This document shows positions 2,956 through 54,139 of a DNA stretch of 64,000 bases, piece after piece (the stretch's first letter is position 1; each line of letters opens with the position of its first letter). Below the pieces are notes generated by a model. It did not search any database and was not told the DNA's origin. It saw only the letters and a list, made by a program, of their open reading frames with translations. The DNA is from Patescibacteria group bacterium (GTDB lineage Bacteria > Patescibacteriota > Minisyncoccia > UBA6257 > GWB1-50-10). Position numbers and translations under genes: made by a program. Location of the stretch: NCBI GenBank assembly GCA_023474215.1, contig JAMCYI010000013.1, positions 16,168 through 80,167 on the forward strand, read 5' to 3'.

Positions 2956-2956
2956 T

Positions 2957-3044
2957 TATCCCCAGATTTAAAGGCCCCCCGGTCTCCTTGAATTTTTGAG
3001 GGTCCCCCGGAGGCCTTTAATTTTTGAAGGAGAGCGGGGGCAAG
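2957..3044. repeat. GC-rich palindromic intergenic repeat, copy A. Near-identical copy at 43316..43404 and partial copy at 28065..28108.
   Basis: Shared leader ttatccccaga, 14-mer GCCCCCCG[C/G]TCTCC and its inverse, and the AATTTTTGA core. Confidence 0.7.
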
Positions 3045-3083
3045 GATTTGAGAGATACAATCCCGAGGTTATATAATAAATTT

Positions 3084-3404
3084 ATGGAACTCAAAAATCT
3101 GGTTTCCCGCGCTATGGAAGTCCGGGAGAAATACGCAGAACTCGAAAGGAAAAAATATGGCAGGGAATGGAATGAAGCGCAGATTGCGGAAGGATTCGTC
3201 GGAGATGTTGGCGATCTCATGAAGCTCGTCATGGCGAAGGAGGGAATCCGAACAACCGAAGCGGTGGAGGAGAAATTGGAACACGAACTCATGGATTGTT
3301 TGTGGTCAATTTTTGTTCTCTCCAAGAAATTTAACATAGATATCGAAAGTTCTTTCCCCAAAGCGATGGACCAGTTGGAGGAGCGAATAAAAAAAGAATT
3401 ATGA
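3084..3404 (+). CDS. MazG-like nucleoside triphosphate pyrophosphohydrolase (all-alpha NTP-PPase fold).
   Basis: EE/ExxD-type helices (EEKLEHELMDCLW...). TATAAT at 3072-3077 sits just before ATG 3084, suggesting a leaderless start. The TTG at 3024 lies inside the repeat, so the ATG is preferred. Confidence 0.5.
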   Translation: MELKNLVSRAMEVREKYAELERKKYGREWNEAQIAEGFVGDVGDLMKLVMAKEGIRTTEAVEEKLEHELMDCLWSIFVLSKKFNIDIESSFPKAMDQLEERIKKEL

Positions 3405-8412: not shown

Positions 8413-8607
8413 TCACTTACATTCGCAATACTTCTTCATGATCTCCTCAAGGCATTCTTCGCGAGGTTTTATTAATTCGATCATCGAATTAAAAAAGAAA
8501 TTCGCCCTTTGATCGCCAGCTCCATACGCCTCGTCCAGCATCTGTTCGACGATCTTCTTTGAACCTTCGTCCAGAACCAGCTTGTTTGCGACAACTTCGG
8601 CCGACAT
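8413..8607 (-). CDS. Hypothetical 64-aa protein ending ...KKYCECK.
   Basis: ORF with a hairpin plus T-tract terminator downstream on the - strand (8352-8385). Confidence 0.25.
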   Translation of the reverse strand: MSAEVVANKLVLDEGSKKIVEQMLDEAYGAGDQRANFFFNSMIELIKPREECLEEIMKKYCECK

Positions 8608-8738: not shown

Positions 8739-8876
8739 AGGATACCTTATCTTGTGAGAAAACTGTCTCGGAGGCCGAGCGGGCATGGTTGCTCGAAGGG
8801 CAGAGCGAGGCCGAGAGCAAGCGCAAATTCCTCGCCGGGGAATTTGATAGCGTGTTTTCGAGCAGGATAAGGTATC
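8739..8876 (-). repeat. Structured repeat element, copy H: 15-bp inverted repeat flanking a 108-nt GC-rich core that is homologous to the cores at 53310-53422 and 53475-53587.
   Basis: ggataccttatcttg / caggataaggtatcc. The reverse complement of the core aligns to the 53-kb copies (...aaccatgcccgctcgg.ctccg...gttttctca). Confidence 0.55.
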
Positions 8877-8889
8877 CGACGCCCCTCTT

Positions 8890-8916
8890 TTAGCGCTTGA
8901 CACTCCCCAGTGCTAA
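8890..8916 (+). promoter_or_regulatory. CIRCE operator (HrcA site) overlapping the -10 of the hrcA promoter.
   Basis: TTAGCGCTT-N9-CAGTGCTAA versus consensus TTAGCACTC-N9-GAGTGCTAA. TATAAT at 8917-8922. Confidence 0.6.
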
Positions 8917-8933
8917 TATATAATGGTTCCTAC

Positions 8934-18916: not shown

Positions 18917-20026
18917 ATGCCACTGGGAAGAGGATTATCATCACTTATTCCACCGAAGGAGGGAGGTGAGAACGGGAAGACATCTTCGGAAGACACTGTC
19001 GTTTCTCCCCAGCGCGGAGAAACGCAGTTCGACTCTCGACCTCGCTCTTCCGCTCCAAGCGGAAACCCTGCCCGCTCGGTCTCCGAGACGCTTCCTCAGA
19101 CGCCTTCCCATTCTTTTAGAGAAAACAATTTGTCCGAGACATTTTCTTCGGCTATTTCACCGGAAAGCCACAGTGTTGGTGGTGAAGAAGTAGTACAGAA
19201 GGAAAAGGAGGCGCTCAGGGAAGCGGTGACTCGCTTGCCGCACGAAGCGGTATTTCAAATCGAAATTTCGAAGATTGTTCCCAATCCGTTCCAGCCGCGG
19301 CGCGAATTCGAGGACGGCGCGATCGACGAGCTGGCCGAATCCATCAAGCAGTTCGGCATCATCCAGCCGCTCATTGTTTCAAAAATAACCGAAGAGACCG
19401 AGACGGGAACGAATGTTTTTTACCAACTGATCGCCGGCGAACGTCGTTTTCGGGCGGCGAAAAAACTCGGCCTCGAGCGGGTTCCCGCCATCGTGCGGGA
19501 GGTGGATCATCCGGGAAGAAAACTCGAACTTGCCCTTATCGAAAACATCCAACGACGAGACCTGAATCCGATCGAGGAAGCGAGAGCTTATTCGCGATTG
19601 CAGGATGAATTCGGCCTGACGCAAAAAGAGATCGCGGTTCGGGTTGGAAAGAGCCGGGAGGTCGTGGCAAACAGCTTGCGGCTCCTCAATTTGCCGCCGG
19701 ACGCCCAGAAAGCTCTCGGCGAAGGGAAAGTGACAAGTTCTCAGGCGAGAATGCTTCTTTCGATCTCAAATGTGACCGATCAAGAACGGACTTTGCGCGA
19801 GATCCTGGATCAAAAACTTTCGGTGCGAGGCATCCGAACGGAGATCAAGCGGCAGGTGGTAGATCATCCCGAAGATCCGGAAGTGATCTTCTTGAAAAAG
19901 AAGCTTGAAGAGTATCTCGGCATGCCGGTCAGGATCACTGATCTTGGCGGAAAGGGGAAGATCACGATCGACTTTTTCTCGAAGGACGATATCAGGAATT
20001 TCATCGACAAGCTCGGCGGGGAGTAG
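18917..20026 (+). CDS. parB: Chromosome partitioning protein ParB/Spo0J with a long low-complexity N-terminal linker.
   Basis: N-terminal GRGLSSLI peptide and ParB box GERRFRAAK. Confidence 0.85.
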   Translation: MPLGRGLSSLIPPKEGGENGKTSSEDTVVSPQRGETQFDSRPRSSAPSGNPARSVSETLPQTPSHSFRENNLSETFSSAISPESHSVGGEEVVQKEKEALREAVTRLPHEAVFQIEISKIVPNPFQPRREFEDGAIDELAESIKQFGIIQPLIVSKITEETETGTNVFYQLIAGERRFRAAKKLGLERVPAIVREVDHPGRKLELALIENIQRRDLNPIEEARAYSRLQDEFGLTQKEIAVRVGKSREVVANSLRLLNLPPDAQKALGEGKVTSSQARMLLSISNVTDQERTLREILDQKLSVRGIRTEIKRQVVDHPEDPEVIFLKKKLEEYLGMPVRITDLGGKGKITIDFFSKDDIRNFIDKLGGE

Positions 20027-20120
20027 GTCTTTTGTTCCTCATTCGTTCACAGGCTCTCGCTTGCTAAAATCCTCCGACCGCTTCGTTGGAATTAAGCCAC
20101 GAAATATCGAACTCAACCTT

Positions 20121-20138
20121 GGTTTCATTAATGAAACC
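20121..20138. promoter_or_regulatory. parS-like palindrome GGTTTCATTAATGAAACC nested inside an 11-bp outer inverted repeat (20099-20109 / 20156-20166).
   Basis: The half-sites GTTTCA/TGAAAC match the parS consensus tGTTTCAcGTGAAACa. About 95 bp downstream of parB. Confidence 0.4.
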
Positions 20139-20259
20139 GGCGGGATTCAGACAGGCGATATTTCGTTCATTCCTTCCTCATCGCTCGGGGATTTTAACGC
20201 AATCTCGAACAAGTTCACTCATGAGGAAGAGAAAGACCTATTTGCTATAATTCATTGGA

Positions 20260-28051: not shown

Positions 28052-28064
28052 GCCAAAGAACTTC

Positions 28065-28108
28065 GCCCCCCGCTCTCCTTTAAAAATTAAAGGCCTCCGG
28101 GGGGGCCT
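28065..28108. repeat. Partial copy B of the GC-rich palindromic intergenic repeat.
   Basis: gccccccgctctcc plus the inverted centre aaaggcctccgggggggcc. Confidence 0.55.
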
Positions 28109-43270: not shown

Positions 43271-43310
43271 ACCGCGGGAAAGCAACATCTTCCTGCGGTC
43301 TTTTGCTTTT
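43271..43310 (+). terminator. Terminator hairpin accgcggg...cctgcggt followed by cttttgctttt.
   Basis: 8-bp stem with one G-U pair, then a T-tract. Confidence 0.5.
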
Positions 43311-43315
43311 CAAAC

Positions 43316-43404
43316 TTATCCCCAGAATCTTTGGCCCCCCGCTCTCCTCGAATTTTTGAGGGAGACCGGGGGGCCTGCAATTTTTGAAGGAGAGCGGGGG
43401 GCGG
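43316..43404. repeat. GC-rich palindromic intergenic repeat, copy C: a 14-bp perfect stem closes a 43-nt loop containing AATTTTTGA twice.
   Basis: gccccccgctctcc (43334-47) pairs with ggagagcggggggc (43391-404). Same leader ttatccccaga as copy A. Confidence 0.7.
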
Positions 43405-43483
43405 AAGCTGGGGACAGGATCGGGACGGAAACCGAAGGGGCGGAAGTTGGCAGGAGGAGGCAGACGGATATAGAATAAGAGCG

Positions 43484-51669: not shown

Positions 51670-52869
51670 ATGGCAGAAAAAGAAAAATACGTAAGAACCA
51701 AACCGCACGTCAACGTTGGGACGATCGGTCACGTGGACCACGGAAAAACGACATTGACCGCGGCCATCACCCACGTCCTTCACATGAAGGGTTTGGCGAA
51801 GAAGGAAGAAGCCGTCGATCAAATCGATAATGCGCCGGAAGAAAGAGCACGCGGCATTACGATCGCGTTGCACCACTCCGAATACGAATCGGAAAAGCGC
51901 CACTATGCGCATATCGATGCTCCGGGACATGCCGATTACATCAAGAACATGATCACGGGCGCCGCACAAATGGACGGCGCAATCCTCGTCGTTTCGGCAG
52001 CTGACGGCCCGATGCCGCAGACGCGGGAGCACATCTTACTCGCATACCAAGTCGGCGTTCCGAAGATCATCGTTTTCCTGAACAAGGTGGACATGGTCGA
52101 CGATCCGGAACTCATCGATCTCGTCGAATCGGAAGTTAGAGAACTTTTGAAGAAGTATCATTTCGACGGAGATGCGACTCCGATCATCCGCGGGTCTGCA
52201 TTGAAAGCGCTCGAAGCGAAATCAGCCGATGACGAAGCTGCAAAGCCGATCCTCGAGCTCGTGAAAGCGTTAGATGATTACATTCCTGAACCGGTCCGTG
52301 CAATCGACAAACCGTTCCTGATGCCGATCGAAGACATCTTTTCGATCGAAGGACGCGGAACCGTCGTAACCGGAAGGGTTGAACGGGGGATCGTCAAAGT
52401 GAACGACGAAGTGGAAATCATCGGTCTCCGGCCGACGACGAAGACGGTCATCACCGGCATCGAAATGTTCCAAAAAACCCTCGATGAAGGGCAGGCAGGC
52501 GATAACGTGGGAGTCCTCCTCCGCGGCTTGAAGAAAGAAGACGTAGAGCGGGGCCAAGTCATCGCAAAGCCAGGCAGCGTTACGCCTCACACCGAATTCA
52601 CGGCGGAGGTGTACGTCCTCTCAAAAGAAGAAGGCGGCCGGCACACGCCGTTCTTCAAGGGGTATAAACCGCAATTCTACATCAGAACGACCGACGTGAC
52701 GGGAGAAGTCACGCTTCCGGAAGGGACCGAAATGGTCATGCCGGGAGATACGGTGAACATCACGGTGAAGCTCATTGCACCGGTCGCCCTTGAAGAGCAG
52801 CAACGGTTCGCCATTCGCGAAGGCGGCAAAACCGTCGGCGCCGGAGTCGTCACAAAGATCATCAAATAA
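51670..52869 (+). CDS. tuf: Elongation factor Tu.
   Basis: [14 protein letters not shown] and NKVD motifs. Confidence 0.98.
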
Positions 52870-52901: not shown

Positions 52902-53234
52902 ATGCCCAAAAAAGATTCAGATCTCCAAAAAGACAAATTGAGAATAAAGATCAAAGCGTACGATCCAAAATTGATCGACAACTCTGTCCGCCAGATCATC
53001 GAAACGATCAAGCGGCAGGGTGGCGAAATCGTAGGACCGATACCTTTGCCGACCGAGTTCAAGAAATATACCGTGAACCGTTCGACGTTCGTGCACAAAA
53101 AATCGAGGGAGCAGTTCGAGCTTCGCATTCACAAACGGCTTCTCGATATCATGAGCCCCGAACAAAAAACGATAGAATCCTTGACCGACCTCAACTTGCC
53201 TTCGGGCGTGGACGTTGAAATCAAGATGGAGTAG
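52902..53234 (+). CDS. rpsJ: 30S ribosomal protein S10.
   Basis: LRIKIKAYD signature. Confidence 0.95.
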   Translation: MPKKDSDLQKDKLRIKIKAYDPKLIDNSVRQIIETIKRQGGEIVGPIPLPTEFKKYTVNRSTFVHKKSREQFELRIHKRLLDIMSPEQKTIESLTDLNLPSGVDVEIKME

Positions 53235-53256
53235 GGATCGAACAAAGAGCACCAAT

Positions 53257-53285
53257 ACAAACACCGCCATCTCGGCGGTGTTTGC
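53257..53285 (+). terminator. Hairpin aaacaccgcc-atct-cggcggtgttt after rpsJ.
   Basis: 10-bp perfect stem followed by gcgttat (a weak T-tract). Confidence 0.45.
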
Positions 53286-53294
53286 GTTATGCCA

Positions 53295-53437
53295 CAGGGA
53301 GGATTTTCTTCTCGCAAACACGCGTCGCGTTTCCCGGCGCGAAACGCGCGCTCGTGCTCATTCTCGCTCTTCTCGCTCCGCTCGAAACCATGCCCGCTCG
53401 GACTCCGCAACGGTTTTCTCAGAGAAAATCCTCCCTG
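53295..53437 (+). repeat. Structured repeat element, copy 1: 15-bp perfect inverted repeat enclosing a 113-nt GC-rich core.
   Basis: cagggaggattttct / agaaaatcctccctg. The core contains nested hairpins (cgcgttt...aaacgcg). Confidence 0.6.
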
Positions 53438-53455
53438 CGAATCCAATCACAACGA

Positions 53456-53606
53456 GCAGATATCCATCATATCCGAACGGGCAGCTCTCGGAGGCGAAAA
53501 AGCTCGGTTCCGCCCGTGAGGCGGATTTTTCGCCGAGAGCGCAGGATGGCTTTCGCCGCCGGAGCGAAAGAACGCCCGGTGCTGAGAGGATATGATGGAT
53601 ATCTGC
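53456..53606 (-). repeat. Structured repeat element, copy 2 (inverted relative to copy 1): 19-bp perfect inverted repeat enclosing a 113-nt core.
   Basis: gcagatatccatcatatcc / ggatatgatggatatctgc. The core shares segments with copy 1 and copy H (tcgctccg..cgaaa.ccat.c..cgctc.gg, tctcggaggc, gccgagagc). Confidence 0.6.
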
Positions 53607-53719
53607 GACTCTCCTGTTGACAAAAAATGCCCTTTTGTCTACTATAAGACCCAAGGAGACAAGTAGCCAAAAGAACGACCGTGGCGAAGTCCCGGCCATT
53701 TTTTTTGACCATACTAACC

Positions 53720-54139
53720 ATGAAAGTCAGCGGCACAAAACTAAAAATGTCTCAAGTTTGGAAGGAAGACGAGTGCATAGCCGTCACGCCGGTTAAAGTT
53801 GCCGAAAACTCCGATCTTTCAGAAGTGAAAGAGGGGGAATTGGTAAAAGTAAGCGGCACAACGAAAGGGCGTGGTTTTCAAGGCGTTGTGAAACGGCATG
53901 GCTTCCACGGAGGTCCCAAGAGCCACGGACAAAAAGACCGTTTGCGCGCTCCTGGATCGAACGGTCCGACGGCACCCCAAAGAACCATCAAAGGAAGAAG
54001 GATGGCAGGACACATGGGTGTCGAAAGAGTGACCGTCAAAAATCTGGAAGTCATCGGCGTCAAAGCTGACGAAAAGATCGTCCTTATGAAGGGGGCGATC
54101 CCCGGACCGGTCGGCGGAAAAATCGAAATACAAAAATGA
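53720..54139 (+). CDS. rplC: 50S ribosomal protein L3 (short form).
   Basis: MKVSGTKLKMSQVW N-terminus and C-terminal GAIPGP. Confidence 0.8.
   Translation: MKVSGTKLKMSQVWKEDECIAVTPVKVAENSDLSEVKEGELVKVSGTTKGRGFQGVVKRHGFHGGPKSHGQKDRLRAPGSNGPTAPQRTIKGRRMAGHMGVERVTVKNLEVIGVKADEKIVLMKGAIPGPVGGKIEIQK

Follow-up and report, generated by a model that had tools for sequence, protein, structure and literature searches.

Rickettsia palindromic elements (RPEs) are palindromic, multi-copy sequences of ~100-150 nt that are found between genes and also in frame within unrelated housekeeping genes (PMC10969869). MITEs, the miniature inverted-repeat transposable elements that include Correia (CREE), ERIC, RUP and BOX, are non-coding, shorter than 500 nt and present in many copies; they are bounded by terminal inverted repeats, cluster or nest within one another, and can be co-transcribed with the operons in which they lie (PMC10969869). 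Here we describe hairpin-closed elements from a 64,000-nt stretch of a Patescibacteria group bacterium genome (contig JAMCYI010000013.1, positions 16,168 to 80,167; hereafter the window), where two of them lie between the ribosomal protein genes rpsJ and rplC.

These spacer elements are probably non-autonomous, selfish interspersed repeats that resemble RPEs or MITEs rather than a regulator of the S10 operon. We favor this reading because related elements are scattered over many phyla of uncultivated bacteria and also lie in frame inside housekeeping genes. An initial annotation of the window had left the choice between a cis-regulatory RNA, a small noncoding RNA and hairpin-forming repeats. 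The repeats fit, and a dedicated RNA gene is disfavored because the copies have no constant neighbor, occur in both orientations, include in-frame coding copies, turn over at their sites and lie, in the window, outside predicted transcription units.

Hairpin-closed elements in the rpsJ-rplC spacer

The spacer between rpsJ and rplC is 485 nt long. The initial annotation had described it as enlarged and occupied by two inverted, hairpin-closed elements, and this was confirmed, with closing arms (P1) that are perfect over 15 bp in the first element (c1) and 19 bp in the second (c2; Table 1). The same spacer, 486/487 nt long and with c1 present, recurs in ten further assemblies of the species (97.3-99.98% identical). 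Perfect inverted repeats of at least 15 nt with a loop of 20-200 nt occur at three places in the whole window (c1, c2 and 43334/43388), and in 30 shuffled versions of the window a single seed of this kind appeared.

Altogether the window holds three copies of a family that we call F1 (c1, cH and c4) and one of a family that we call F2 (c2). The copy upstream of hrcA (cH) had already been recognized, with one G.T pair in the outer 15 nt of its arms, although at coordinates that were off by one; c4, which lies in the parB open reading frame (ORF), brings to four a count that had stood at three. Blastn aligns c1 with cH over 115 nt at 72% identity (E 5e-14). R1, a covariance model built on an F1 alignment of 58 seed copies and yielding 125 model hits, matched c1 at 53309-53423 on the plus strand (91 bits, E 6e-25), cH at 8753-8864 on the minus strand (99.2 bits) and c4 at 18982-19101 on the plus strand (104.6 bits), with no further convincing match elsewhere in the window. 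The 113-nt core of c1 contains a P2 hairpin (loop CCCGGCG), junction helices, a P3 hairpin and a conserved AACCATGCCCGCTCGGACTCCG block.

The claim that all cores are clearly homologous therefore holds for c1 and cH; c2 has no blastn similarity to c1 and is related to it distantly, by R1 only (minus strand, 21.1 bits, E 2e-4). Oriented opposite to c1, c2 has the P2 loop TCCGGCG and a CUCUCGG/CCGAGAG helix that encloses an inner hairpin. It has closer relatives of its own in three GTDB genomes (loci L016, 86% identical; L076, 79%; L092, 72%) and in three JGI metagenome contigs; the closing arms differ in each of these relatives, and the P2 stem differs yet stays complementary, that is, it covaries. 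Because it lacks blastn similarity to c1, scores weakly with R1 and has these closer relatives, we place c2 in its own family, F2, a sister to F1. Both have the closing stem, a P2 hairpin whose loop is CCRGCG, and the CUCUCGG/CCGAGAG helix.

Overlapping short ORFs in all frames had been remarked on across this spacer. Open frames are indeed present, and their abundance is mostly an effect of composition, with 2.99 stop-free frames per element compared with 2.55 in dinucleotide shuffles. Selection for stop-free frames was considered and dropped, the excess over the shuffles being only slight.

A branched fold maintained by compensatory change

The element is a non-coding, hairpin-closed unit of ~115-150 nt (115-170 nt observed, and up to ~500 nt with nested inserts) and a GC content of 0.55-0.69. 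Read 5' to 3' in the orientation of c1, an F1 copy begins with the left arm of P1 (10-30 bp, sequence free) and continues through GAAAAnACGC, the P2 hairpin (stem variable, loop yCCCAGCGnGG), GCUCGnnUCUCGGCCUCGCUCU and the P3 hairpin, which may have any sequence and ranges from 5 bp to forms with nested inserts of 281-284 or 360-375 nt; it closes with AACCnUGCCCGCUCGGnCUCCGAGAnG..UUUUC and the right arm of P1. The core consists of P2 with its CCRGCG loop, the CUCUCGG/CCGAGAG helix, a GCC/GGN helix, P3 and an unpaired AACCNUGCCCGCUC block.

From a plain MAFFT alignment of the 58 copies, RNAalifold predicted P2, P3, a CGnUCUC/GAnAGG helix and the GCC/GGN helix, with double changes in 18 of 21 pairs. 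On 123 distinct model-aligned copies, paired cells amounted to 88.5%, compared with 62.6% after column shuffling and 32-46% when partners were slid, and the covariation score was 0.52, compared with 0.16 (shuffled) and <0.1 (slid). Both sides had changed in 20 of the 21 pairs in this set, which spans many phyla and takes in related copies, so that the events counted are not independent. The F1 fold is preserved by compensatory change, and the earlier argument that such changes mark a selected fold holds across these copies; collecting homologues bore out the fold as well, with P2, P3 and the two junction helices covarying across phyla. A pseudoknot between the P2 loop and the junction (AGCGAG with CTCGCT) was rejected, since the junction is invariant and gives it no covariation support.

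Mismatches of the wobble type were asymmetric between strands, in different directions in different helices. On the c1 strand, the inner helices favored G.U over A.C (105:30 with the model-fitted alignment; 43:24 with the unfitted MAFFT alignment, where two pairs account for most of it), whereas the P1 arms showed the reverse bias (G.T 31 vs A.C 86, or ~17 vs 50 once one systematic position was removed).

P3 is also where other sequences are found. Other hairpin elements nest in its tip, and in Bipolaricaulota and in metagenome-assembled genomes (MAGs) labeled 'Thermotogae' it holds a conserved nested insert, of the lengths given above (L110 6466-6884, with similar loci in L037, L041, L084, L099, L120 and L121). 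The nested insert had no ORF and no Rfam match; no P3 insert exceeded 375 nt, and no long insert carried an ORF.

Distribution and database searches

The 22-nt F1 core AACCNTGCCCGCTCGGNCTCCG was scanned for exact matches against one genome per GTDB species. It was found in at least 115 stretches from about ten phyla, often on many contigs of a genome. The hosts listed include Saccharibacteria and many other Patescibacteria, Bipolaricaulota/Acetothermia, MAGs labeled Thermotogae, WOR-3, Omnitrophota, Aminicenantes, Planctomycetes, Chloroflexota and Actinobacteria MAGs. Taxonomic labels of MAGs may be imperfect; nonetheless, three phyla have the element on complete chromosomes (CP070655.1, OY970122.1 and OY970216.1), and the complete genome GCA_027423645.1 contains it as well. 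No element match was obtained in IMG/VR, GenBank phages, PLSDB plasmids (rickettsial plasmids included) or E. coli genomes.

At the gathering threshold, Rfam 15 found only three tRNAs in the whole window and left the elements unmatched. At E <= 10, a search with the spacer and with the large variant L110 returned nothing above 18 bits, where thresholds range from 37 to 191. A literature search of incomplete coverage found no description of the core, of palindromic elements in the candidate phyla radiation (CPR) or of Patescibacteria MITEs. The family is apparently undescribed, as the initial annotation had suspected. A tRNA-like origin was rejected, as the Rfam tRNA model has no match on the elements; GGCCGAGCGG on the reverse strand bears no more than a resemblance to the D-arms of class II tRNAs. 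At the protein level, a search with an element-encoded 48-mer peptide gave no candidates, and a 42-mer searched against 1.8 billion representatives retrieved ParB and two low-complexity proteins only.

Genomic context of the copies

Rough ORF calls were used for the genes around the copies. About 64 of 79 strong copies are intergenic, and some of the others count as genic only through spurious extensions of an ORF at its N terminus. Copies face either way relative to the flanking genes: those inside ORFs are antisense in ten cases and sense in five, and in tight operon spacers the element is co-oriented with the genes in 8 of 10. When ORFs of at least 120 aa from 115 loci were clustered, no neighbor recurred beyond syntenic housekeeping genes, and no reverse transcriptase, HUH, integrase or RAYT-like gene recurred near the copies. 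The flanks of the element are not conserved, and no promoter or terminator travels with it.

In the window, c1 and c2 lie between a hairpin directly after rpsJ and the promoter-like site of rplC (Table 1), and cH lies between divergent promoter-like sites at 8684-8656 on the minus strand and 8897-8924 on the plus strand (12/12). From these positions, the intergenic copies of the window are predicted to be outside transcription units, and they need not be transcribed or affect expression. Divergent from hrcA, a 64-aa ORF (8416-8607, minus strand) has the 8684-8656 site as its own promoter-like site, and a CIRCE-like inverted repeat (TTAGCGCTTGACACTCCCCAGTGCTAA, 8889-8924) overlaps the hrcA promoter.

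Other copies are translated. The parB ORF is open throughout c4, which is read in frame in the disordered N-terminal linker of ParB. Relatives differ in whether their ParB has the encoded peptide (..VVSPQRGET..PRSS..GNPARSVSETL): it occurs in proteins as distant as ~52% identity and is missing from others. In-frame elements were also found in an IscS/NifS-like protein in two genomes and, once each, in DnaX, LigA and FolD; two genomes have the element at one shared loop of TsaD, with opposite orientations. Element-free homologues of the interrupted proteins align across the gap. Separately, the window ParB exceeds a 93%-identical homologue (P0002) by 17 residues (~58-74, ETLPQTPSHSFRENNLS), a 51-nt in-frame indel directly after c4 (~19090-19140).

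Closing arms and flanking repeats

Every copy has a closing inverted repeat of 10-30 bp, and its sequence differs between most copies. The initial annotation had set the elements apart from MITEs, whose copies share their termini; most arms do differ, but some are shared. Arm sequence is common within subgroups only. In the Bipolaricaulota/'Thermotogae' set the arms give a recognizable consensus with compensated variants, the copies at L026 (inside FolD) and L080, which are in different genomes, have ~24 nt of arm sequence in common, and the arms of c1 are homologous to those of the L128 copy. We considered whether the arms come from the target, with insertion into a hairpin that was already there or inverted copying of the flank, an idea that a left arm retained in L129 (see below) had seemed to support. 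We rejected this because arms recur across genes and genomes (L026/L080 and c1/L128), and the L128 arms are imperfect. Since copies in different genes and genomes have arms in common, the arms move with the element; they evolve fast and are free to change provided that pairing is kept.

Identical dinucleotides flank 12 of 55 copies, compared with ~3.6 in shifted controls, and eight of the 12 are TC, including those at c2 and cH. There was no signal for direct repeats of 3-4 bp at these 55 copies. They may reflect either a preference for certain targets or a target duplication of 2 bp that has decayed.

Turnover in relatives

Spacers between rpsJ and rplC in relatives measure 104, 367, 486, 549 and 690 nt and hold different element families. 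In L132 and L133 (RplC 73-75% identical to that of the window) the spacer is 104 nt long and element-free, with promoter and leader directly after rpsJ. In L126 and L127 (RplC 94%) it is 367 nt long and has other hairpin elements; global alignment of the window spacer with that of L126 showed no clean empty site. The 690-nt spacer of L128 (RplC 82%) holds an F1 copy with c1-like arms and a 250-nt element of another family. L129, whose RplC protein is the same as in L128, has a spacer of 549 nt, with 141 nt of the L128 F1 copy missing; this difference is bounded by a 7-nt direct repeat, and the left arm is retained. L130 (RplC 82%) has a whole gene between rpsJ and rplC. This gene (607-1983) encodes 458 aa with N_methyl and Laminin_G_3 matches, so that the gap also takes whole genes.

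At the hrcA site, we compared the strain L136, which is 98.8% identical to the window on the hrcA side. Homology to the window ends exactly at 8876/8877 (~1700-1711 in L136), the end of cH. An element of a third repeat family abuts the same junction, and the upstream genes differ. Position 8876/8877 is a rearrangement breakpoint at the end of an element. The rpsJ-rplC gap and the site upstream of hrcA are hot spots, at which relatives carry different elements or none.

The third family is represented in the window at 20061-20200, just 3' of parB (inverted repeat 20088-20109 / 20156-20177), and elsewhere in the rpsJ-rplC gap of L128, L129 and L130, upstream of hrcA in L136, and in L073 and L118. 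A fourth repeat family, with an inverted repeat of 20 nt (43329-43348 / 43388-43407), occurs in the window as three copies or fragments (43301-43430, 2956-3040 and 28064-28101); R1 matched one of these weakly (2992-3092, E 0.03), and it may be a distant relative of F1. A hairpin close behind rpsJ (CCTCCCGAGC..GCTCGGGAGG) has its loop inverted between L128 (1811-1850) and L129 (704-743), which looks like an inversion via the inverted repeat.

Boundary genes and leader

The hairpin directly after rpsJ is also kept in L126, L128 and L130, and in the window c1 and c2 lie downstream of it. According to a leader alignment, five relatives keep the rplC leader, composed of AAGGAGACAAGTAGCC, a run of A, a GC hairpin and a run of T; Rfam has nothing that matches it, and it looks like a ribosomal-protein leader or attenuator. 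L3 has ~210 aa in most bacteria. RplC is short in the window lineage (139 aa) and in relatives (130-146 aa).

Table 1. Elements, genes and signals of the window, with positions counted from its first nucleotide.
Feature	Position	Strand	Remarks
cH, family F1	8740-8877	-	upstream of hrcA; arms 8740-8763 / 8854-8877, 24 nt, 83% complementary
c4, family F1	18969-19114	+	in parB ORF (18917-20026); blastn match ~18986-19100; closing stem degenerate
tuf	51670-52869	+	5' of rpsJ
rpsJ (ribosomal protein S10)	52902-53234	+	ORF and Pfam Ribosomal_S10; upstream spacer boundary
Terminator-like GC-rich hairpin, CAAACACCGCC..GGCGGTGTTTG	53258-53284	+	directly 3' of rpsJ; 11-nt perfect inverted repeat
c1, family F1	53295-53437	+	arms 53295-53309 / 53423-53437, 15 nt, 100% complementary, 113 nt apart
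c2, family F2	53456-53606	-	arms 53456-53474 / 53588-53606, 19 nt, 100% complementary, 113 nt apart
rplC promoter-like site and leader	53617-53719	+	promoter 53617-53645, TTGACA-17-TACTAT, 10/12 matches; c1 and c2 upstream
rplC (ribosomal protein L3, 139 aa)	53720-54139	+	ORF and Pfam Ribosomal_L3; downstream spacer boundary

Origin of the elements and alternative explanations

If the elements are selfish repeats, each copy would be made, or would once have been made, by a trans-acting enzyme encoded elsewhere. This enzyme may recognize a folded single strand, of DNA or RNA, through the conserved unpaired motifs and the closing helix and not through terminal sequence. Recognition of the fold would explain why the loops are conserved and the arms drift yet remain complementary. 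Insertion may occur with a 2-bp stagger, mostly at TC. Copies would persist because a self-contained fold breaks few reading frames and leaves the host gene working. On this reading, c1 and c2 are probably passengers in the gap between terminator and promoter with no role in control of the S10 operon. Upon read-through, their perfect stems of 15-19 bp could be RNase III substrates, as has been shown for Correia elements (PMC10969869).

Several observations weigh against the selfish-repeat reading. Among the relatives compared, we found no clean pair of filled and empty sites with an unambiguous target-site duplication, and the 'empty' L129 allele resembles a deletion by slippage. The 115 loci revealed neither an autonomous parent nor a partner enzyme. 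The termini are the least conserved part of a GC-rich element, unlike those of MITEs. A 22-nt core that is exact across phyla, together with conserved loops, resembles a functional RNA or a protein-binding site, and the co-orientation with genes in tight operon spacers hints at selection at the RNA level. Finally, wobble asymmetry gave no consistent call of the folding strand, as inner helices and P1 disagree.

Some of these observations are what a functional structured RNA family would produce, whether it acts in cis (in mRNA processing or stability, or as insulation between cistrons) or as a small noncoding RNA, with selection for binding or catalysis. Four helices covary strongly around invariant junction and loop nucleotides, P3 varies in length as hairpins do in many aptamers and ribozymes, many copies outside the window lie in short operon spacers and are hence co-transcribed, eight of ten of them in the sense of the genes, and the inner helices favor G.U on the c1 strand. 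We nevertheless regard this explanation as improbable. The P1 bias runs the opposite way, copies occur in both orientations with ORF copies mostly antisense, and no gene neighbor is constant over the 115 loci. The intergenic copies of the window lie outside predicted transcription units and carry neither promoter nor terminator along, at least six protein families contain in-frame translated copies, and close relatives have no element, or have others, at the same site. We give still less credence to a host-domesticated architecture like that of repetitive extragenic palindromes (REP) and bacterial interspersed mosaic elements (BIME), which would provide sites for nucleoid, gyrase or condensin-type proteins or insulate terminators from promoters. 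The window copies do lie in terminator-promoter and divergent-promoter gaps, relatives refill the same gaps with different hairpin families, and the lack of consistent strand asymmetry would suit a duplex or cruciform role. Such a role is difficult to reconcile with the 104-nt element-free spacers of L132 and L133, where the promoter directly follows rpsJ; nor do in-frame coding copies suit an intergenic function, and conserved loops and junctions with covarying stems point to a single-stranded fold and not to duplex binding.

A more specific version of the mobility step in the selfish-repeat reading would make the element a non-autonomous retroelement, similar to short interspersed nuclear elements (SINEs), or a structure-specific single-strand substrate of the attC or HUH type whose enzyme is encoded elsewhere. 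Fold and loops that are conserved while the arms are free but complementary would follow from it, as would terminal inverted repeats without sequence conservation, as if the folded strand were recognized, and the nesting of other hairpin elements in the P3 tip. Yet the copies have no recurrent reverse transcriptase, HUH or integrase gene nearby, the alignment has no attC R'/R'' boxes, and there is neither poly-A nor a target duplication of variable length, only the weak 2-bp direct repeat; we consider this version quite doubtful. Chance inverted repeats or an assembly artefact would be a natural concern for sequence from a MAG, but these can practically be dismissed: independent assemblies contain the same spacer, the 30 shuffles of the window yielded a single seed, and the family is present in over 100 other genomes. 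It is also conceivable, though we think it unlikely, that the core, made up of the CCRGCG loop, the unpaired AACCNUGCCCGCUC block, the two junction helices and the sequence-free closing helix, is an active nucleic-acid machine or recognition module, either a new class of self-processing RNA or a substrate of a structure-specific single-strand recombinase or reverse transcriptase. In both cases an element of ~120 nt could pass from phylum to phylum and sit harmlessly in essential genes, and it would be a new kind of bacterial mobile element, with its fold and not its ends as the defining feature.

Palindromic elements that invade housekeeping genes in frame have so far been regarded as peculiar to Rickettsia; the family described here behaves likewise and is common to CPR/Patescibacteria, Bipolaricaulota, WOR-3, Omnitrophota, Aminicenantes and others. 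On the selfish-repeat reading, the rpsJ-rplC gap in the window is a landing pad for repeats and not the seat of a new regulator. Provided that the family is undescribed, the R1 model lets annotators mask spurious ORFs and explain odd insertions in ribosomal operons and essential proteins, the element may serve as a marker of horizontal exchange between phyla, and the question arises which enzyme recognizes a folded strand with free termini.

Comparison with known systems

Structured RNAs in Rfam 15 resemble F1 in their covarying helices, invariant junctions and a single hairpin of variable length. F1 differs from riboswitches and small RNA genes in its multi-copy dispersal, its occurrence in both orientations and its in-frame coding copies. 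The attC sites are similar in that a folded single strand is recognized, structure is conserved over sequence, the length is 57-141 nt and the terminal structure is variable. However, in attC sites the ends (R''/R' boxes) are conserved and the center varies, and the sites form cassette arrays beside intI, whereas F1 shows the reverse arrangement and is dispersed in housekeeping loci.

Among repeats, REPs and REPINs, which RAYT (HUH) transposases mobilize, are hairpin-forming interspersed elements with compensatory changes, and their hairpin is thought to matter as single-stranded DNA. REPs are 20-40 nt long and conserved in sequence per genome, and REPINs pair them around a variable loop; F1 instead has a conserved, branched core of 90-110 nt at its center, its stems vary, and no RAYT-like gene recurs in the 115 loci. 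Identity with ERIC, REP or BIME was rejected, as F1 has no similarity to anything in E. coli genomes. MITEs share with F1 a length below 500 nt, inverted repeats, many non-coding copies, stable stem-loops and nesting. In MITEs it is the terminal repeats, bound by the transposase, that are conserved, and target duplications occur regularly, whereas the termini of F1 are its most variable part and are flanked by a weak 2-bp repeat; MITEs are typically AT-rich and have an insertion sequence as parent, whereas F1 is GC-rich and no parent was found.

RPEs, for whose features Ogata et al. are said to have provided a further source in 2000, are like F1 palindromic and non-coding, encode a peptide that is tolerated in frame, and have, as does F1, no known transposase or clear termini. 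Compared by description, RPEs are confined to Rickettsia, and F1, with its exact 22-nt core, is found in about ten phyla. The arms of F1 differ from copy to copy and its internal hairpins covary, so that a branched fold is conserved and not, as in RPEs, the sequence of a palindrome. We claim membership of no named family for F1; in behavior it comes closest to RPEs.

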